A stretch of DNA of 64,000 nt from Lophium mytilinum (lineage: Eukaryota): contig MU004188.1 of NCBI GenBank assembly GCA_010093605.1, forward strand, positions 375,673 to 439,672. The letters are read 5' to 3'. The position numbers and the translations under genes are program-made. Positions 712 through 18,801 of the stretch are shown here, one piece after another (position 1 is the first letter of the stretch; each line of letters starts with the position of its first letter). The notes beneath the pieces were generated by a model, which saw nothing but the letters and a program-made list of their open reading frames with translations, was not told the origin of the DNA and made no database searches.

Positions 712-1565
712 AATAACGAGAAGGCGATCCTCATATCTCTCTTTAGTCCCGTCTCCCAGAGTCTCTCGTAATTTGTAGGAAGGCCCCATGGCTTCGGTGA
801 ACTTAGACTCTTGCTCCTTCATGAATGCCCCCGTTGTAGATTGTTACGGATTCTGTCATCAGATTTAGTATAGCTAGGTCATTTGGAAGGCGTGTTATTG
901 CAAATCTGGTGGATTCTGTACGAGTCTATGATCTAGTGTTGAATGTGTTTGGAGCAACTCAGAATGTCCGATTGAGTGTTGTTAACTTCATACCCAGGGA
1001 ATTATATATTCCAGTCTCTTTGCTCACAACAGTCACGTAATGAACATCCGCAAACCATCAGTGACTCCCCCTACCCCTATCTATCGCCATCTATATCCAT
1101 AATGCCTCCGAAAACTCACCATTGCCTCCATAAAAGCACCCCCCTACAACCATACGCATCAAACCCACCAGCCCATCTCCCTCACCGGTCCACGCCCCCT
1201 CTCCAAGCCCACCGACAAGGCAACCCGCACCAGCATCCACGCAATGCATGCGCCATCGCCTCATCGCCTTCTCCTCTAGACCGCTGCCTAGAACCCAGCC
1301 TCCGCGTTTAATATACCTAATCGATGCCCTCCTAATACGAAAGGCGGGGCCAGTCTTGGCCCATGCCCCTCCCTCGCCTGGCTACGTCACCGCGACGCGT
1401 GATGCGTATAAAGCGGCCACATCCAACTCCAACCACCACCATATAAGAACTCGCCAGCAAACACTTCCTAACCTCACACACCAAACCAACCATCCACCCA
1501 CCACGACGATCCGAAAACTCCATTTTCCGCCAAAGATACACTTCCACACCACCCGTCCCGCAACC

Positions 1566-2381: not shown

Positions 2382-4676
2382 TCACCACCCCGTCGCAATC
2401 CCAGCAACCCCCTCATCAACCCTCCTCCGCTTCGCCCTCCCCTTCCCCATCTCCCTCTGCCCCTCCCTCTCCCCATCTCTATCCCCCACAACCTCCCCAA
2501 ACCCGCTCCCAACCCTCTCCGTCACCCTCAGCAACCTCCTCAACGCCCCCACAACGGCGCCCCCGTGCTCAAACGCCATCACAATCGAGCAGCGCACCGT
2601 GAGCGCCGTGAGCCATTTCCGCGTCGCTTTCTGCTCTATGCTCTCTTGCGGCGTGGTGGGTCGAGCCGCCGCGCCACCAACGAGCCCGACCCAAAACAGG
2701 ACGCCGGCGAGGTCGGACCACACGGTCTGGTGGGGTGTGCGGAGGATGGCGTGGTGGAGGGCGGTCAGGAGGGAGGCGTGGGCGGGCTGGGGTTCGCGTG
2801 GGGAATAGAGCGTTCCGAAGGGCGTCGAGGCAGTCGAGTGCACGGACGGTGTGGAGGGCGAGGGGAGCGGGAAGAAGAAGTCGTTGCCGGCGTAGGGGTA
2901 CGCGACAGCCGGGGCAGACGTGGGCGTGTAGGCCGCTGTGGCTGCTGAGATGGCGGTAGTGGTCGTGGATGCTGAGATGGTGAAGGGGGAGGTGTTGCCG
3001 CTGGCGCTGGTGCTGGCGCGCTTGCTCGCTTTGACAGCTTTGTGCCCGCGATCCTTTTTCAGGAGTTCTTCGGCGATGGTTACGGCCTCGGAGAGTTTGA
3101 CGCGCTTGACGATGGCGGTCGCTTGGATGAGGGAGGCTATGCGGATGCTTTCGTAGATCATGTCGCCGAATTCTGGGTTGTGACCGCGTAGTTCGCTGGC
3201 GCTGGGGAGTTGGATAAACTTCTTTAGATATGCTTTCAGCGTCTCTTCTTTTCTCCGGCCTTCGGTGGTGGTCAGGCTGGAGGCTGTGTCGAGGTACAGA
3301 TCCGTCATATTTCTCACGTCTTTTAAGAGTGAAAGTGTATGTGGCTTGCATAGGTCATTGACTTCCAATGTCTCAAAATCCGGCCGTGGGCAGAAAAGCG
3401 GCGACTCTGGGATCTTCCTCCCTGAGACAATGTCGGGATATGACACACGCGAGCTGTATCGGAGGTATAAAGTACTGGGCTGGGCTTCGCGGAGGATGGC
3501 GGACTGGAACGATATGCTTAATATGATGGTCGCAAGGGCGCCTTGCACACCCAAACGCTCGAGACCTCCTCGCTGCCGAACCATGGTCTCGATGCCTTTC
3601 TCGTGGAAAGCGAGCATGGCATTGTTGCCCGCGATGACCTCGCTATAGATGAGCTGGACAACAGCGATGATGGTGGAGTCGTCAATGCGGGAGTTTGGGT
3701 TGAGGAGGCTGCGGTTGATAAGGTTGATCACTTCTTGACGGAGGGCTACACTCTCAACGCTCTCAGTGAGCCGGTAACGTGAGGCGTCTAGGTGGGCGGA
3801 GGCAATACACAGTGTGCTGAGGAAGGCATCTCGTCTATACGTGATGGCTGGTATCCAAATCTGGCCCATTGCTTTGGTGCCAAATGCTCGACTGCCTGGG
3901 ATCTTGTTAGCGCGTCTATAGTACTAGAAGAAAAGAGGAAACATGCAGTGAAACTTCAGTTGTTCTACAGACACCCCGGGATGAGAACTCTGGAACATTC
4001 TCTTGAAGGGATCCACGGGTGTCCCAAGTGCCCGCTCTGGCGGCTCCAATACAAAGCTGCTCCGAGCATGATTTGAGGGCCTCTGTGACGCAAAGATGAA
4101 CGGATTGAGGTCGCTCTCAAGAAGACGGAGCTCCATGTCAAGTCCGTCATACGGGAGCCTATCATTTACTCGAGCGGGTTGAATGAGGGGTTGATATTGT
4201 TGACACGCAGCAAGAGATTCAGGGATGGACAAGAGCATTTGGTTGCCCCATTGTCCAGGAGAAGGGGTCTGGATCGCGAGAGAGTTCGTCTCTTCTTCAT
4301 GACTCGACGTGGGTCTTGTGGGCGAGTGCTCTGGTTTCGATGCTCCGTGGAAAAGCTTCAAGGCAAGCTCCGACGGCATCACATCTTCAACCTCATCGTC
4401 GCTCTCAGTCACTTGCGAGGCATTCGAGTCTTCACTGTGCAGTCTGGGCCGTCTCTGCTGCTGCTGCACACGCAGCCCGCTCGCAGCGCTCATCCGCTTC
4501 CCTTTCTTCCTCAAGTGGTCGTTCATGGCCCAGGTACGGATCTTCTTCATAGCTCTGGGCTGCTTGAAACCTATGGGATTGCTCGCAGTGATCCATAGCA
4601 GCGGCGAAGTATTCGTTGGCGATGCAGCTTTTACATTCCCGGCTCGTGGTTTCGGGCTGTCGGAGGCTGGTAGCAT
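2382..4676 (-). CDS. Fungal-specific transcription-factor-domain protein (Fungal_trans_2/DUF3468-like); 2 exons, intron about 3896-3946
   Basis: ORFs 3924-4676 and 2382-3869 join through a 51-nt intron. N-terminal 'KKIRTWAMNDHL' and central 'DSTIIAVVQL...FHEKGIETMVRQRGGLERLG' motifs resemble this family. Confidence 0.65.
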
Positions 4677-10102: not shown

Positions 10103-13100
10103 TCAGGTACTACTCCCATTAGCCTGCGCCACCACCAGACTACCCTGCTTCACCGGGCCGCCCCTCTCGCCCCTCTCCCTCCTCCTTCCCCTCTCTGGCC
10201 TCCCCTCCCCAAGACCCAAGCCCCTCAGCGCCCTCTTCATACTCTCCAACCTCGCCCGCTCCGTGACCACCATCTTGAGCGCTAACTCCCGACATGCCTT
10301 CCTCCCCATCGCAACTCGCTGCTCCTGCCACGCCGCCAGCTCCCCCGCAACAACCTGCTGCGTGTACCGCAACTCCCGCCCTAGCCCATCCAGCTCATTG
10401 AGGCTCTTATCCATCCTCTCCGCCGCATCGCGCTGAATACGGTGGCGAGCGTCGTCGAGCAGACCCAAGGGCCAGCGATCTGAGCGCCGAAAGGAGAGGC
10501 TGTGGCGATCGATCGCCTTCTGCGTCGTTGACATCTGAGAAATCAGGGTGGATGGACGATTCAGCGCAGTAAGTACTGCAGTCGTGGTCGACGAGATCGC
10601 GAGCATATTGTAGTAGAAACTCGTCATCGGGCTCGCGTCGCTCTGCAGAAGTGTCTTGGTGTACTTTTCGAACGCTTTGAGATGTTCCTGGGGTAGGAAA
10701 ATGAGGGACTGAACAGCTTGGCTCGAGATACTGGCAGAATCTGTGAGATCCGTAGACGCGGTGCGCAGTTTAGTTGTGCGACGAAGGATCGATTTCGTGG
10801 AGTGGTGGACCGAGCGGACGGATTCGCGGGCATATTGCACAAAGAGTTCTACCTCGCGAACATCGCGGACGGGGCTGTATTCGTCACGCACGTGTTCGGC
10901 GCGAATTTCGGATTTGCGGGAGGAGCGCTCTTGGAGCAGAGAGGGTTCCATGTCCGGGACGAGGAAGAATTCCCACACCATCTCGTGGGTGGAGAAGGTG
11001 GAGTGGGTGAGTAGTAGCTTGAGGAATGAGTCGAGGCGGATTTGAATGTCTCGAAGGATGGCGCGGGACGGTCTTGAGGGTATGAGGAACGGTGATGGTA
11101 AGTTTGCTATGGAGGGAAGCCAAGACGCCGGATGTTCTTGAGCTAACCATTTTGCGAGATTCTCGAAATCGACCAATGATCTCCGGCATGTGGTAACCGT
11201 AATGGTGGAATTGTCGTTTGGTGCACCGGACTTGAGGACCAGTCGCACGGTTCCATCCTCGACAAAGAATGAACGAACAACTGTAGTAATCCGTCCATCC
11301 GAAGTTGGTTCGCTTTGAAGCAGAACGAGATCGTCAATGCGATTGCGAACATCGTCATCTTTAGCAAGCTCTACAGCTGTCAGGCCCCGTACATCTTTGA
11401 CAGAGGGGTCGACTCGGGCATCTTGGAACAATTGCCGCACGAGCTCCGTCCGCCCATACTTGCTCGCAACCATCAACGGCGTAAAATGCTTATCATTAGG
11501 GGCGTTAACATCCGTGTCTTGATATAGCAGCCTTATAGCAATAGCCGGATCATTGATGATGTGGAGGAGTGTGTTGCCCTTAGCATCGATATGTTCGTCG
11601 AGGTGGAGCTTCTGACCGTCGCCTTGGGCTTCCGTTGCCGCGTTAATAGCGGCGTTGATCATCCAGCGGTACTCGTCATGGTCGTACGATCTACACAAGG
11701 CGAAAAGTGGTGTTTGACCGTTCTTGTCCTTTAGCCTCCATGGCACTAGATGCCCAATTCGTGATATTAGTCGCGGTTGGTTGAAGAGGTAATGTGCGGC
11801 GCATCTGCCCGAGGAGTCTTGAATAGCTATATATTCGTTGACAATTTTCTCACTGGGAGAATTATCGAGAACGAAGTCCAGAATCAGATCCGTCGTCTTA
11901 GCGTGTGACAACTGAATCGCGGCACTGAGCAGAGTAGTGCCGTTGTTGCTACAATCTTCTAGAACCGCGTCTGGCGAATAGTATTGAGATAGGCTTAGTA
12001 GATAGTTCAAGGCCTTGTCCTGGCTTTTCTCGACAGCCATCATCAGGACCGACTCTCCTTCTGGGCTTTGGGTCTGAGTAAGCCTTTCAATAGAGGTATC
12101 TCCCTCGATACCACTGCTGTGCGAGTCGATTGTGTTCGTACGAGATCGGAAGGAAAACATGGAGGAGCTCGATGTACTTCGAGTGTCCATCGATACCCTC
12201 TTCTTCGCTTTTGGACGTTCTGCTGGCGGGGGGGACGGAGCTCTCTGGAAAGGAAAAATATGAGCCAAAGGGCCGGCTTGAAGTCTCCGCTCACTATGAG
12301 ATGAGCTATGGCGTCTTTCGTGCCGATGGTAATCGCCGTTCAAGGTAGTGCCTCCGATGGATGACAAGTCGGTGTCGCTATTGTTGTACCGAACATGTCT
12401 AGCTATGACAGACTCGTCTTCCTCGGGCTGGTGCTCTTCGTTCCCATTGAACTCTAATGACCTATCTGGCTCTAAGACATTTTGCATTTCCGAAATGTCT
12501 CCATTGATGGTCGCCTCCCATAGTTTCCTATTTCTGCGACTTGATTTCCTTAGACCACCAGCATCTTTCGCCAGATATGAGATGACAGCTTCGAATGTGC
12601 TTAATGCATAGCCCATCTCTCCGCTTTCTACATCATCGATAAAGATGAAATGGCGCATGTAAGACAAGCGTGCCTGGAGGTGCCGTACAGGTGATCGAAT
12701 CACAACTATCAGAAGGAGTGAGACAAGTGTGTCGGCGTTGATCATGAGCATGGGATCTTCTTTCTCGGAGTCTGACTTCCCGTTGGCGTCAAGTTTTAAA
12801 CTTGATGTGTCGGCAGGCTTGTCTGGCATCGTGATGTGCTTCTGGGTTGACAGTAGGATTTCGACCATCTCTTGAGGGCCTCCAGCGACGCCCATCTTCT
12901 TGAAAATCTCTGCGCCTTTTGACAGTCGAATTGCCAGCTCACGCTTGCCCTTTTGTCCGTTTCCAATTGTGATGCCCACCTGCGAGATATCAACGTCCAC
13001 CATCTGACGGATCCTGGCTTCCAATTCCAAATCATCAAATCTTCTAATAGAGCAAAGCCTCGGAAAAAGGATTGTATGATGAACCTGTTCTGTGATGTAG

Positions 13101-14172
13101 CGTTCAATCATGCGCTCAACAAGCGGTCCAGTAAGATCAGTCGTAGCGCCAAGTAGTGACAGCTGCTGTTTGTCAACCATCTGAAAGAGATCTATGGCGG
13201 CTGTAACAGCCGTCTCTAGAGAACGCCTCATCAAGTCCTCTTCCTCGTCAACCTCGAGGCTAGCATGAATACCATTGGGCCCATGGGAAATAGTGCTCTG
13301 TAGCGATGTCGGTAGGCTCTCCGTAGAAGACACAGACGCTCTGCGGAGGGAATTCAAAGATGACGATCGAGACGGCTTATTTGGTATCGATGGCAGCGGT
13401 TTCTCGAACTCCTTTCCGAACTCTTCAAAGAGCCTTTTAAGCCCAGGTTGCATTTGTCGCGCAATCATGGGGAAATGGTTGAGCAAATCGCCGAACGACT
13501 TGATCTCAGTCTTCCGTGGCATAGCGGAGCTCGACGCGCTGGTCCCGTTCGCACCGTTTGTTCCATCCTGCAATGCTGGTTCCTTTGTGGGGCTGTCGGA
13601 GATGGTAGCGGCTATGATGGGTATAGATTCGTACGTGCCGACCAACGGTCGCGAGATGTAGTATATCAGCCATGGCTGTGCGTCGAAGGAATCGGGATAG
13701 TAGATGGCGTCGCCAAGAAGCTGGGCCTGATTAAGGGTTTTGAAACCTGTTGCTATTAGCAATACTTTGGGGATCGCGCTGTCCAGATGCGACGGTACCT
13801 TTATTGCTCCATACGAACGCATCCTTTATCACCAGAATGCGCCCGTTCGCCGTCGAGTACTGCTTCGCCTTGCCCCGGTTTTCTCTAAAATTCGACCCAT
13901 CCTTGACTCCGCCCGGCACCCTGATAACATGGCTTGCGAGGAAGTCCTCCGAGCTACTTAGATCAGAGTATAGGGCGTGCGTTTCGCGATCGCGGGAGTG
14001 AAGGAGGACTTCGGTGGTAGGAACCAAAAGCACCTAGCAGCAGAGAGTCCTGTTAGCGGATGGTTCAAAGTATTAGGACTGTTGAGCGGCATACGTGATG
14101 GTGAGCCGGCGCGCACTGGGTGGGGAGTGTGCTACGGAAGAAGGCCCGCAAGAAAGGGTTTAAGGGGTGCAT
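10103..14172 (-). CDS. VPS9-domain / ankyrin-repeat / PX-domain protein (Vrl1/VARP-like Rab GEF)
   Basis: Exon 1 starts MHPLNPFLRAFFRS at 14172. The 1239-aa ORF has VPS9 motifs (INADTLVSLL, GEMGYALSTFEA), ankyrin repeats (GQTPLFAL, FTPLMVASKYG) and a PX-like C-terminus (RRSLVDFENLAKWL). Confidence 0.85.
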
Positions 14173-14992
14173 TCAATCGACATTGACGGGGCCGGAGGAA
14201 GATGAGGAGGCGCAAGGCTCATGCGAGCTTGCGACGTGAGACCGGTCAGACCGGTTGGCTGCGCTGAAGCTTTACCCGCTCCTATTGTACCGGGAGCCTG
14301 CTGAGGCGGGAAGGGTTGGCGGACGCGGAGGTGAAGGCGGGGAGACGGACGTGGAGGCTGTAGGAGTGCGCATCAGCAGCTACGGCGGACAGGGCGACAG
14401 CTGCGTGAAAGAACGGGAGATGCGATCGCTGGGATGTCTTCGAGAGTGTCTGGTGATGCGCAAGCGTGGTGTTGAGTTCTAGAAACCGTAGATTCACATG
14501 CTAGGATGAGCCCGTAAGCCCTCCCAAGTGGAGCTAGCTCCTAACGTCATCTCTCCACTCACGAACAATCACATATACCTCTCTGCCAAGCCCAGCACTT
14601 CTCTCTTTCAATTGCTTTCAGATCAACTTTATATTTGGCGTTGCCACGAAGGTGCGCGTATAGATACAAATTCTGCATGAGGGACTCTAAAATATCACCC
14701 TGTTTCCATCTCCAGGTCCCCTTGCCTAGTTCTCTTAGGTAGACTAGCACTTTTTCTTGGCATTTCTATCTAGACGTAACACACCTTCTATTGACCTCTC
14801 CATCATACTGCTATGGCGTGAGCACCATTCCCTAGTCCACCATCTTTCCTTACTGCAGTTACCTCCAATTATGAAGAAAAAGCAGAGACGCTGTGTCATC
14901 ACAAATCGTCGTCAGCGCCCCAAAAGCAAGGCTCTTGGGACCGGGTACCCAGTACCAGTCAGTACCTGTTAGCGCCAAAAGAAAGAGGTGGT

Positions 14993-15123
14993 GTCTGGTG
15001 CCGTGGATCGAACGCGGGTTTTGTCCCGGTATATGAGGTTTAGATGAAGGAAAGACAGAATAAGTCCTCCCCCCAAGAAGGGAATGGATTAGGTCACGGT
15101 CTAACCAAATGACCTACACCGGA
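14993..15123 (-). ncRNA. tRNA-like unit A with a 65-nt anticodon-loop segment (degenerate)
   Basis: Minus strand: TCCGGTG-TA-GGTC ATTTGGTTA GACC-G-TGACC..[65 nt]..GGACA-AAAC-CCGCG TTCGATC CACGG-CACCAGA. One mismatch each in the acceptor, anticodon and T stems. T-run terminator at 14977-14980. Confidence 0.65.
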
Positions 15124-15352
15124 GAAGATTGTCAATTGAGTAAAATTATTTGCTATGCATCCCGTACCTAACGCTGCTGACAGTTACACGATTGCTCGTC
15201 GAATCGGAACTCGGGGAGTGACGGCATCTCTGCAGCTACCCGTACTGCTATCTAGAACTTCAAGATTTATCTACACCGCTTTTCACGCATCACTGCTATA
15301 TATCCTAACGACAACCTCGAGGTAGCAAAAGACGAGACCTCCCAAAAACCGA

Positions 15353-15511
15353 TTCCGGTCCCGAGAATTCGAATTCAGGCTTCAACCATTGCGGGAATCC
15401 TTCAAAGTCTGGACAACAGCGATTTCTGCAGCGCCGAGACAGCTGCTGCAATATCGCGTGTCGTGAAACCAAGTCTATGAGGCTTGCGTTCTACCACTGA
15501 ACTAAACCAGA
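15353..15511 (-). ncRNA. tRNA-like unit B, nominal anticodon CAT, 94-nt anticodon-loop segment
   Basis: Minus strand: TCTGGTT-TA-GTTC AGTGGTA GAAC-G-CAAGC-CT CAT A..[insert]..GGTTG-AAGC-CTGAA TTCGAATT CTCGG-GACCGGA. The acceptor stem pairs fully with G-U pairs. TTTTT follows. Confidence 0.65.
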
Positions 15512-15612
15512 TTTTTATTGAAGGAGCAACGAGATAATAGATACATAATAATCCTAGAAGCGAGAGGCATGAGTAGCAAAGATATATAGCAGCTGAGACG
15601 AAAAGACACATC

Positions 15613-15784
15613 TTCCGTTGCAGAGATTCGAACCCAGGTTCTTATCAAACTGGCTAAGCTGGTATGGTCATTGGTCAATGGACAATTTTCTCGACTGAGT
15701 CTCCCCTGGGGTCGCTCTGCCGCCTTAGAATCAAGGTTTACGGCCCTTGCTAAGATTTCTTTCTACCGCTTAACCAAGCCAGGA
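15613..15784 (-). ncRNA. tRNA-like unit C (most degenerate), nominal anticodon AGC, about 107-nt loop segment
   Basis: Minus strand: TCCTGGCT-TG-GTTA AGCGGTA GAAA-G-AAATC-TT AGC A..[insert]..GATAA-GAAC-CTGGG TTCGAAT CTCTG-CAACGGA. B-box GGTTCGAATC is intact, stems are eroded, TTTT follows. Confidence 0.5.
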
Positions 15785-15885
15785 TTTTGGTTGGACATTT
15801 GGAGAGTCTGATGCGTATGATGCTTGGAAGCAATGGACACGAGGGGCAAAAAGGAGGTATCAAAGCGGAGAAGCAAAAGAGGTCT

Positions 15886-16042
15886 CTCCGGCGCTGAGAA
15901 TCGAACTCAGGTCTCAATTGCCACCAGCAGTCCTGGACCCATGTCCTGGACACGCTGCACCCCAGGCGTTAACGGTCCAACCGGAAACAGCCTCTCAAGG
16001 TGTGATATTGTAATCGCGTTCTGGCCACTGAACTACGCCGGA
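15886..16042 (-). tRNA. tRNA-like gene unit D with intact cloverleaf, about 85-nt intron-like insert and non-canonical anticodon loop (nominal AAT)
   Basis: Minus strand: TCCGGCG-TA-GTTC AGTGGCCA GAAC-G-CGATT-AC AAT A..[insert]..C-AATTG-AGAC-CTGAG TTCGATT CTCAG-CGCCGGA-G. Perfect acceptor, D and T stems. TTTT terminator at 15875-15878. Positions 32/33 are A/C rather than Y/U. Confidence 0.7.
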
Positions 16043-16800
16043 TTTGAATTAGAGGTGAGTACAATGAGAGAATACATAAGGCTGCGATATGGCTTACGAT
16101 ATGATGGTGGTGATGAAGGAGCATACGGCACTTGACACATGTTAATTCAACGTTGACATGGACTAGACTTATATCTTTTCAAACGTAAGCAATGAAAGAG
16201 AAGGTTGTTACTGAGGACTCAAGACGTTTGCAATGAGCTCCGTGTGTGGTCATATAGCATTTTCTTGGATTGAATTCGATGTTCTCCTTTCGTATAGGCT
16301 TCTTCGTGAAGCCTCCTTATCAATCATATGCTTGAGGATTCCGCAGCTATTAGACTAAAGTGCTGATCATATAGCTTTGTATTCAGCGAAAGGAGAACTA
16401 TCCCGGCTTCGTATATATACTTATCTTACGCGATACGAGATTCCGAGGTCTAGACCAATCTTCGGAGCCTGAGTGGAGTGAGTTTTAAAACGCACCATGT
16501 ATAGTACTAGGTCATCGGGTTGGGCGCACACGCATATACCACTGTTTGGCCTCCCTTCATCACGCTTGTATGTATTAGTGTATCTGATTGGGGTATCCTT
16601 GGAGCCTGATCAAAGAGCCACAGTCGAAGTACTTGGTGAGATTAGGAGCTAAATCTCGTGACATAGCTTCTGAGTCACGAGACCTTACGCCACCGAATTC
16701 ACGTTATTCCCTATGGGCAAGAGGCTAGATTGAACTAAGTGATAGAAAAGAGAGAAAGGGTGTAGGTATTTGGATAAAAGACGGGGCGGGGAATTGTTTC

Positions 16801-16832
16801 GCCCTAGTCGACCTCCGACGGAAGACTCCCGA
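16801..16832. promoter_or_regulatory. Putative Zn2Cys6 site (CGG-N7-CCGA) preceded by GCCCTAGTCGA, upstream of the monooxygenase
   Basis: CGGAAGACTCCCGA at 16819-16832. The 11-mer GCCCTAGTCGA recurs at 26825-26835 in another cluster promoter. Confidence 0.4.
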
Positions 16833-17161
16833 ACACACTCCCGATACACCACCTGCCATCGCTCCGCCATCTAGATTAGCATCCGTGAGCCTCTAGTGCG
16901 CGATCGAGAGGTTAGGATGGTTTCCTTGGGTGTGTCGCGTGCAGGCCTTCCGTTGGGGAGACCTTCCGACGCTATGTCTCGCCATTACACAAACCACGAA
17001 GCGTGTCCTAGGTTTGGGCCACTCTATGAATCTCGGTGACTTTGCATCTTCTTTCCTGCTTGAAGGACTTTCAGGTTCGTCAAAAGCCTCAAGATATTAG
17101 GCATTGCCTTCTTTCTTGTCTTCCTGCGATTGCTCATTAACTGTTAATCTCGCCATCCATC

Positions 17162-18801
17162 ATGCCGTTTACTACTGCAAAGAAGCAGATCTACCTAAAT
17201 TTCTTCGAGCATGGCTGCACAGGTAGTCACATGTCTCCGGGTCAATGGCGGTTCGTCATATACTTGTAATCGTATAATCAGAAACTTTTCTAATTCATCG
17301 CAGCGACCCAAGCGACAAAGGCACCACGAAGGACACGCTCGACTACTGGATCAACCTTGCCAAACTTGCTGAAGAAGGCAAAATCAACTTCATCTTCTTC
17401 GCAGATGGCTATACCACACACGAGATCTATGAAGGCACTTCTGATCCCATGCTTCGGGCTGGCACCCAATTCGCGACTATCGACCCAATGACCGTCATTC
17501 CCGCCATGGCAGCCGTTACAAAGACGCTCGGATTTGGTGTGACGGGTAGTACTAGCTATCTTACCCCATTCATTCTGGGAAGGACGTTCAGTTCACTAGA
17601 TCATCTCACCAAAGGCCGCATTGCATGGAATGTGGTGACGAGTTGGAGCAAAAGTACTGCTCAGGCGCTGGGAGCTGAGGATGTTATACCCCATGATGAG
17701 CGCTACGCCATGGCACATGAATATATGGATATAGTCTACAAGCTTTGGGAGAGCTCGTGGGCAGATGACTCGGTGGTCTGGGACCGGGAGAGACGCGTAG
17801 CCTTCGAACCGAGCAAAGTCAAGCGGATTGAACATCAAGGTCTGTACTCCCAGCCTAATAGTGAGGCATAGACACACACTTACAGAACCCTCACAGGCAA
17901 ATACTTCAAGATGTCCGCCCGTGGTAACACCCACCCCTCACCACAGCGGACGCCAGTCATATTCCAAGCTGGCACGTCCACGGCTGGGCGCGCCTTCGCA
18001 TCGAAACATGCTGAAGCAATATATGTCGGTGGTCTCGTTCCAGCGCAGACGAAAGGTAGAATAGCGGCCATCCGCGCCGCAGCCGCCGAACGGGGTCGCG
18101 ACCCAGCATCGCTCAAGTTCTTCGTTGGCATTTCCCCAATCCTGGGGGCAACCCTAGAAGAGGCACAAGCAAAATACGAGCGAGCGAAAGAAAATGCGGA
18201 CGTAATTGGCGGGTTAGCACAGTTCTCGGGATACACAGGTATCGACCTCAGCCGTTTCCCATTGGACAAGGTGTTTGAGCTCAAAGATGCACCTGGGGAT
18301 GACGCTGTTCACTCGTTCCTCGAGAACTTCAACAACGTCTCTGGTAATACTGAGCCATGGACACCACGACGGTTGGGTGAGAAGATGGCTCTAGGGGGGT
18401 TCCACCCGGCGCCAGTGGGGACGCCGGCGATGGTTGCGGATGTATTCGAGCAGTGGATTGACGAGGCTGATGTAGACGGCTTCAACATCGCGTACATAAC
18501 GACACCAGGCAGCTTTGAGGACATCGTTTACCTTCTCAGACCAGAGTTGGTGAAGAGAGGGCTCATGTGGGAGGACTATACAGTCCCAGGTGGTTCCCTG
18601 AGAGAAAATCTGACGGGAGTCAAGGGTCAGAAGGGCATTTCATCAGATCACTACGCAGCGAAGTTCAAGTACGGAAGAGGTTTCGAAGGCGACAGCATCG
18701 AAGCAATGAAAGCGGTGAAACCCAAGACGAATGGTGTAAGTATCAAGCTGCCAGTACTGAATGACAAGCTCCCAGCAGCTCGAGAGGAAGTCAAGGCGTA
18801 G
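17162..18801 (+). CDS. FMNH2-dependent luciferase-like monooxygenase, NtaA/SnaA/DszA family (introns 17251-17303 and about 17840-17897)
   Basis: MPFTTAKKQIYLNFF...PGQWR, YWINLAKLAEEGKINFIFFAD, DPMTVIPAMAAVT, SLDHLTKGRIAWNVVTS, SPQRTPVIFQAGTS, DVDGFN are hallmark motifs of this family. Confidence 0.92.

Follow-up and report, generated by a model that had tools for sequence, protein, structure and literature searches.

A tandem array of tRNA-like units with long, mutually unrelated anticodon-loop inserts in Lophium mytilinum: a possible family of non-decoding Pol III-type genes

What kind of gene keeps the body of a transfer RNA (tRNA) while the RNA held in its anticodon loop differs wholly from one copy to the next? 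The question is raised by a 64,000-nucleotide (nt) stretch of contig MU004188.1 of the fungus Lophium mytilinum (the window, 64 kb), in which four tRNA-like units lie in tandem on the minus strand at 16042–15886 (U1), 15784–15613 (U2), 15511–15353 (U3) and 15123–14993 (U4), separated by spacers of 101, 101 and 229 nt. These four units had been recognized from the sequence as tRNA scaffolds with unrelated cargo, and both their positions and the layout of a conserved tRNA scaffold around a variable insert proved to be real. The reading that we favor, with a probability of roughly 0.55, is that the array is a lineage-specific tandem family of four paralogous, tRNA-derived, non-decoding genes of RNA polymerase III (Pol III) type, which carry long intron-like inserts and evolve by duplication and decay.

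The body of a unit consists of a 7-base-pair (bp) acceptor stem, a D arm containing the A box, a 5-bp anticodon stem, a 4-nt variable loop and a T arm containing the B box, and is interrupted between the two halves of the anticodon stem. The inserts have the lengths originally given for them: 92 nt in U1 (15920–16011, between a 5′ half at 16012–16042 and a 3′ half at 15886–15919), 107 nt in U2 (15647–15753, between 15754–15784 and 15613–15646), 94 nt in U3 (15388–15481, between 15482–15511 and 15353–15387) and 65 nt in U4 (15027–15091, between 15092–15123 and 14993–15026). Run with default settings, ARAGORN calls no tRNA gene in the window. When introns are allowed at the default threshold, U1 is the sole call, and at the relaxed setting -ps90 U1, U3 and U4 are found among 13 calls in the 64 kb; in each case the ends agree exactly with those of the original prediction.

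Profiles of the two half-units were used to look for additional copies across the window. The profile of the four 5′ halves returns the units at E-values of 1e-6 to 1.5e-4 and its next-best match at 2.6, and that of the four 3′ halves returns them at 1.5e-10 to 5.8e-9 and its next-best match at 0.96. Since the units themselves supplied these profiles, the searches inform only on whether more copies exist, and neither yields a fifth copy in the window. The long spacer between U3 and U4 holds a candidate relic of a fifth unit (15193–15281, minus strand), made up of a D-arm-like piece at 15264–15281 and a B-box-like piece at 15193–15215. This candidate lacks statistical support: the best fractions of shuffles were 0.044 and 0.144 among eight uncorrected tests, and four control stretches scored similarly to the candidate pieces.

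Conservation is concentrated in the body of the units. In all six unit pairs the 5′ halves are alike (global-alignment z-scores of 3.0 to 6.3 against shuffles), as are the 3′ halves (4.2 to 6.0), whereas the inserts are mutually unalignable, as had been claimed (pairwise global z of −1.9 to 1.1 over the six pairs), and the 80-nt flanks reach a mean pairwise z of only about 1. Conservation in the body therefore greatly exceeds that in the sequence around it. Should the array be the product of tandem duplication, divergence has reached saturation everywhere outside the tRNA body.

The conserved body also pairs as a cloverleaf. Across the four units and one metagenomic relative (L033, described below), standard pairs occupy 86.4% of 103 pair cells, compared with 29.6–44.1% when the 3′ partner is slid by one to three columns, and none of 500 shuffles reaches any of the five pairing measures. 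Pairing has been maintained through sequence change, as originally suggested, with 14 of 21 pairs altered on both sides in this set of five. The stem that closes the insert is the clearest instance, with both partners altered in all five of its pairs: a 5-bp helix seals off every insert, precisely as far from the D and T arms as an anticodon stem lies, and the sequence of this helix is wholly different in each unit. The D stem of U4, GGTC/GACC, differs from GTTC/GAAC by compensatory change.

The units differ in how intact this cloverleaf is. U1 forms all 21 pairs, U3 forms 19, U4 forms 18 and U2 forms 13 (0, 2, 3 and 8 unpaired cells, respectively, with one in L033), and a cloverleaf of 7, 4, 5 and 5 bp at standard spacing is present in U1, U3 and U4, with U2 alone failing. 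The mismatches in U4 are two C·A and one A·A. The acceptor and D-stem pairing proposed for every unit thus stands for three of them and breaks down in U2, whose acceptor and D stems are largely broken and which was aligned with a bulged T in the acceptor stem. Similarly, the B-box sequence GTTCGA attributed to each unit is found in U1, U2 and U4; U3 reads ATTCGA within an 8-nt T loop, and the A at position 53 creates an A·C mismatch. An intact U1, U3 and U4 with two to three mismatches and a badly damaged U2 are best read as copies at different stages of decay.

Positions universal to the tRNA core are retained preferentially. Among the positions scored (U8, A14, G18, G19, A21, G53, T54, T55, C56, A58 and C61), which are those generally held to be universal in tRNAs, 10 of 11 do not vary among the four units; for the rest of the body the figure is 19 of 54 (one-sided Fisher p = 8e-4). 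The sole core position that varies is G53, which is A in U3. The conserved core positions coincide with the A and B boxes, and even in the damaged U2 the box positions have been kept. Repeat-induced point mutation was considered as a source of biased decay; its indices over the array (TA/AT 0.79; (CA+TG)/(AC+GT) 1.15) lie near the medians over windows of this sequence (0.705 and 1.19), and without its signature the process cannot account for the pattern. Compensatory change in the scaffold argues that it has been under selection as a folded RNA, as far as can be read from the sequence.

Are the units then simply tRNA genes that decode? Ordinary decoder tRNA genes with long canonical introns, in a lineage where such introns are common, would explain the body, and part of the evidence fits. 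Once the inserts are removed in silico at position 37/38, ARAGORN at its default threshold calls U1 (score 111.9) and U3 (102.0), lowering the threshold to 95% adds U4, and U2 appears only at 85%. The loops of U2 (TTAGCA) and U3 (CTCATA) fit the canonical Y-U-NNN-A form on the 5′ side, and long tRNA introns exist elsewhere (PMC8450103). Against this, the loops of U1 (ACAATA) and U4 (TAATCC) contain no U33 under any single excision that keeps the best stem, U1 having A32 and C33 and U4 having A33, so that the family as a whole does not display the 7-nt loop with U33 and a purine at 37 that U2 and U3 can form. The anticodons that result from insert removal are AAT, AGC, CAT and ATC (Ile, Ala, Met and Asp), on a single acceptor type, TCCGG/CCGGA, common to all four units. 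Judged by the established rules of tRNA identity, four such readings on one acceptor type would fit no normal identity rule.

The original prediction, which held that the units should not score as ordinary high-confidence tRNAs, is borne out by Rfam, where no match of any family in the window reaches its gathering score. The best match to the tRNA model, U3, obtains 19.8 bits against a gathering score of 29, and the other units return nothing at E-values up to 10; this is a weak test, as long inserts penalize the Rfam tRNA model. On sequence grounds the units do not look like ordinary decoder tRNAs: two of them lack U33, unrelated anticodons would sit on one acceptor type and none reaches the gathering score. 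With only 13 of 21 pairs left in U2 as well, we consider decoder genes with long introns very improbable.

The array has the features of Pol III type-2 genes, namely internal A and B boxes and a downstream T-run, at the level of sequence. An oligo-T run had been assigned to every unit, and the runs are real but short: TTTT occurs within 16 nt of the 3′ end in all four, against a background of 3.3% of the 16-nt windows taken along this strand of the whole 64 kb and 7.6% of those taken locally. The runs begin 5–13 nt past the unit ends. U1 is followed by T4 at 15875–15878, 8 nt past its 3′ end, with a further T5 at 15848–15852; U2 by T4 at 15601–15604, 9 nt past; U3 by T5 at 15344–15348, 5 nt past, with a second T4 at 15327–15330; and U4 by T3-C-T4 at 14977–14984, 9–16 nt past.

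On the upstream side, the heptamer TATGTAT stands at −36 in both U1 (16072–16078) and U3 (15541–15547), and related heptamers are found at −35 in U2 (CATACGC, 15813–15819) and at −34 in U4 (CATAGCA, 15151–15157), all on the minus strand. An A-rich leader directly precedes +1 in three of the four units (U1–U3). The heptamer may be a TATA-like upstream element of Pol III and the leader the start region. Invariant A- and B-box positions, a T-run after every unit and a motif near −35 bear out the Pol III-type signals that had been proposed for the array.

The inserts themselves offer few clues to a function. Rfam assigns no family to any of them at E-values up to 10, and this includes small nucleolar RNA families of the box C/D guide type. 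In a folding test against shuffles, in which the insert coordinates were 1–2 nt off for U1–U3, the inserts of U1 to U4 gave z-scores of −2.2, +0.5, −1.7 and −1.9, modest at best, and the three spacers gave −0.5, +1.1 and +1.4. The exact-match test, run on the same coordinates, found matches of at most 11 nt within the window on the strand complementary to the inserts. Part of the U3 insert recurs exactly over 15 nt at 3654–3668 on the inserts' own strand (blastn-short E 0.004), the only match longer than 12 nt for any insert elsewhere in the window. By eye, pairing between position 32 and intron position −3 is possible in three of five units, L033 included, which is about the level of chance. 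Inspection by eye for signals of spliceosomal type found nothing in U1–U4 comparable to the GTAAGT...CTAAC-AG of L033, which itself spans only 27 nt.

Toward its 3′ end, the U2 insert is complementary to the acceptor 5′ strand and D arm of U2 itself, with about 16 bp paired in the unconstrained minimum-energy fold. This part of the insert may have arisen by inverted copying of some of the 5′ half, and the predicted pairing would compete with the cloverleaf.

A search of metagenomic sequence provided the one outside relative. The pattern scanned for, a D arm followed by a T loop at a gap of 85–115 nt, proved too permissive and occurs at 120 loci or more. Among the matches listed, 107 fall within what ARAGORN calls as ordinary tRNA genes, for the most part neighboring bacterial ones, and 13 lie outside such genes; a regular expression for the acceptor type of the array has three matches over the loci listed, none of them a long-insert unit. 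One of the 13, L033, looks eukaryotic. It is a single tRNA-like gene (950–1090, minus strand) with a 76-nt insert, a perfect 5-bp closing stem and a T7 run. Its loop, AAACCA, is without U33 and reads Gly(ACC) after in silico removal of the insert, and the inserts of L033 and U1 both end in GGTGGC directly before the closing stem. The protein encoded beside this gene is 59% identical to a Cladosporium protein, its best named relative. L033 is a further long-insert, non-canonical tRNA-like gene, probably of another Dothideomycete, albeit a single find made with a biased pattern.

Is the array transcribed? It lies upstream of a minus-strand gene for a VPS9/ankyrin/PX protein (open reading frame 10103–13822, 1,239 aa, which matches a protein recorded for L. 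mytilinum at 100% identity and one of Mytilinidion resinicola, likewise a Dothideomycete, at 96%), and a plus-strand gene for a luciferase-like monooxygenase lies on its other side. Contigs assembled from X1, the one sequencing run found to contain the array, join across two introns of the VPS9 gene (13745–13796 and 14032–14092, minus-strand GT..AG) and two introns of the plus-strand gene (17250–17302 and 17838–17894). The run therefore behaves as RNA over 13000–18000; its RNA label is a guess, and its contigs give no strand, ends, level or polymerase. One strand-less contig of 1,764 nt covers 14574–16337 with no break and no difference, and holds all four units together with their inserts, spacers and T-runs. 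No joint inside the array and no excised or insert-less form is seen among the run X1 contigs, which drop rare forms. The positions 14435–14573, 16338–16386 and 16564–16745 have no contig cover and nothing is drawn from them. RNA across the array probably exists, with carried-over DNA as the other possibility.

A second transcript adjoins the array. A 197-nt contig joins 16165–16184 to 16387–16563 across a plus-strand GT..AG intron (16185–16386), and a spliced plus-strand transcript therefore begins in or beside the stretch upstream of U1. On this strand, just upstream of U1, 16105–16165 matches the box C/D-like Rfam family sn2903 at 15.5 bits against a gathering score of 50 (E 3.8). A GTGATGA box can be picked out by eye; with CTGA as its candidate D box, the element would extend beyond the splice donor at 16184 and thus span it. 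This match is probably due to chance.

Several explanations compete for these observations. The original prediction had inferred that the bodies serve as Pol III promoter and as handle for the splicing endonuclease, and that the excised inserts act as small guide or regulatory RNAs specific to each unit. A conserved scaffold around unrelated inserts, a closing stem kept through double-sided change in all five pairs and anticodon loops that are not kept as decoders are what this proposal would lead one to expect; there is published precedent for functional free tRNA introns, and three of the four inserts fold somewhat better than shuffles while the three spacers do not. The inserts speak less clearly for it. 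None belongs to a recognized family at the E-values searched, no folding z-score passes −2.3 and that of U2 is positive, exact complementarity within the 64 kb stops at 11 nt with the single 15-nt match on the inserts' own strand, and the contigs of run X1 include neither an excised nor an insert-less form. We regard working inserts as rather unlikely. A transcript of about 1.8 kb made by RNA polymerase II (Pol II), a long non-coding RNA (lncRNA), would be a real gene in which the cloverleaves act, in the sense direction, as signals for RNase P and RNase Z, or, in the antisense direction, lie as silent relics under a divergent transcript from the VPS9 promoter. It gains from the 1,764-nt contig that runs through every spacer and T-run, under which the longest ATG open reading frame has 100 aa and overlaps U1 on the other strand, and Pol II lncRNAs are known to contain tRNA-like elements whose anticodon regions are not conserved. 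Yet it leaves unexplained the T-run 5–13 nt past every unit and the −35 motif before each; the contig, lacking strand, ends and polymerase, may owe something to DNA carry-over; and the spliced plus-strand RNA (16184 to 16387) overlaps its right end, so that the contig may merge several RNAs. Such a lncRNA seems doubtful to us, slightly more so than working inserts.

Mobile elements deserve mention because the original prediction named a decaying tRNA-derived repeat family as its mundane alternative. That suggestion was partly right: U2 at least looks to be decaying, and the units are not neutrally diverged bodies of a short interspersed nuclear element (SINE). Copies of a tRNA-derived SINE or other mobile repeat would supply a tRNA-type head with A and B boxes in several copies. 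They would not supply a 3′ acceptor strand paired with the 5′ strand in every unit, unrelated inserts or tandem copies each with a T-run of its own, and no further copy occurs in the 64 kb and no flanking direct repeats were seen by eye; this origin is hardly credible.

In the reading that we favor, that of a non-decoding tandem family in decay, the body would be held by selection as a Pol III promoter and a folded cloverleaf, and the sequences of the insert and anticodon stem would evolve freely, save for keeping the stem closed. From the anatomy of the units, Pol III would start about 10 nt upstream of each and stop at the T-run, RNase P and RNase Z would trim the ends, and the tRNA-splicing (Sen) endonuclease, measuring from the body, would cut out the insert. 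The products would be a tRNA-like RNA of about 72 nt and a free linear insert. Several points weigh against this reading. The case for selection rests on four paralogues that were found by their tRNA motifs, an ascertainment bias that inflates motif conservation; the cloverleaf used in the pairing test was that of U1, and the pattern by which L033 was found prescribes its D arm and TTCGA. The state of U2 shows that constraint is not uniform. The T-runs are only 4–5 long, which is weak for yeast Pol III, and a contig that passes through spacers and T-runs with the inserts in place is more readily explained by a Pol II transcript, which may be antisense, or by carried-over DNA than by discrete Pol III products.

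How does the array compare with known systems? A Drosophila tRNA-Tyr gene carries a 113-nt canonical intron (PMC8450103). Genes with long introns at position 37/38 resemble the units in having a full body, a long insert of similar size in the anticodon loop, closure by a 5-bp anticodon stem, A and B boxes and a T-run. They differ in being true decoders with canonical loops, whereas here two of four units lack U33 and one acceptor type is joined to four unrelated anticodons, and the units are tandem paralogues with unrelated inserts. In animals, tRNA introns reportedly give rise to circular RNAs (tRNA intronic circular RNAs, tricRNAs); the Trl1 pathway yields linear, not circular, introns. Fungi ligate tRNA halves by the latter pathway (PMC4090602). 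A fungal precedent for an excised tRNA intron as a working RNA comes from budding yeast. Its free tRNA introns (fitRNAs) are said to lower mRNAs that carry complementary stretches; the introns that yield them are short and belong to ordinary essential tRNA genes, whereas the inserts described here show no complementarity of at least 12 nt to a neighboring transcript.

Clusters of tRNA genes and pseudogenes turn over fast (PMC2888827). They resemble the array in their same-strand tRNA genes, spaced by less than 1 kb, and in their unequal integrity, their non-canonical loops and their low scores against tRNA models. The difference is that neutral decay should strike core positions and stems like the rest, whereas here all but one of the core positions are invariant and two-thirds of the pairs have changed on both sides. 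The mascRNA of MALAT1 is a tRNA-like element within a Pol II lncRNA that is processed by RNase P and RNase Z. Elements of this type share with the units a cloverleaf with conserved acceptor, D and T arms and a non-decoding anticodon region, and the units too are possibly embedded in a longer transcript; they differ in being single 3′-end processing elements of animals, without a long insert, a T-run or expression from A and B boxes. In archaea, the intron of tRNA-Trp carries a box C/D guide RNA, and this intron of about 100 nt in the anticodon region, encoding a separate small RNA, resembles the inserts in place and size. The inserts of the array match no Rfam family, of C/D type or otherwise, at E-values up to 10, and both the domain of life and the splicing motif differ.

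The metagenomic scan also brought up loci of another kind. In three (L088, L101 and L105) a complete tRNA gene lies inside the anticodon loop of a second tRNA-like gene, whose outer stem reads CCCGCCC...GGGCGGG, and in five others (L001, L002, L008, L015 and L051) an outer 5′ half and about 35 nt are followed by a complete inner tRNA and the outer 3′ half. The contigs with these nested tRNAs look prokaryotic or phage-like and are unrelated to the fungal array.

Within a limited full-text collection of the literature, we came across no account of fungal tRNA-like genes that stand in tandem and carry long, unrelated inserts in the anticodon loop. What sets the array apart is a combination: paralogues in tandem that share one conserved scaffold, long inserts that are unrelated while their closing stems co-vary, and the loss of decoder features. 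The occurrence of L033 hints at such genes in other Dothideomycetes. There is a slim prospect that the array is a natural fungal cassette system, in which a tandem tRNA-shaped Pol III scaffold would present a different RNA of 65–107 nt in each copy, released by the tRNA end-processing and splicing enzymes of the cell. By analogy, and with an equally slim chance, such a system might be a fungal counterpart of the animal tricRNAs and the free-intron regulators of yeast, with genes that exist solely for making the insert.

If the array is merely a dying cluster, it would matter for annotation, since default ARAGORN and Rfam at its gathering score miss the units, and it would provide a clean example of the Pol III promoter and cloverleaf outlasting the anticodon as a tRNA gene decays. 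If it is active, these would be genes that keep the shape of a tRNA for a purpose other than decoding, the tRNA splicing pathway of fungi could serve as a general production line for small RNAs, and the array would give the engineered tRNA-guide arrays of genome editing a precedent in nature.

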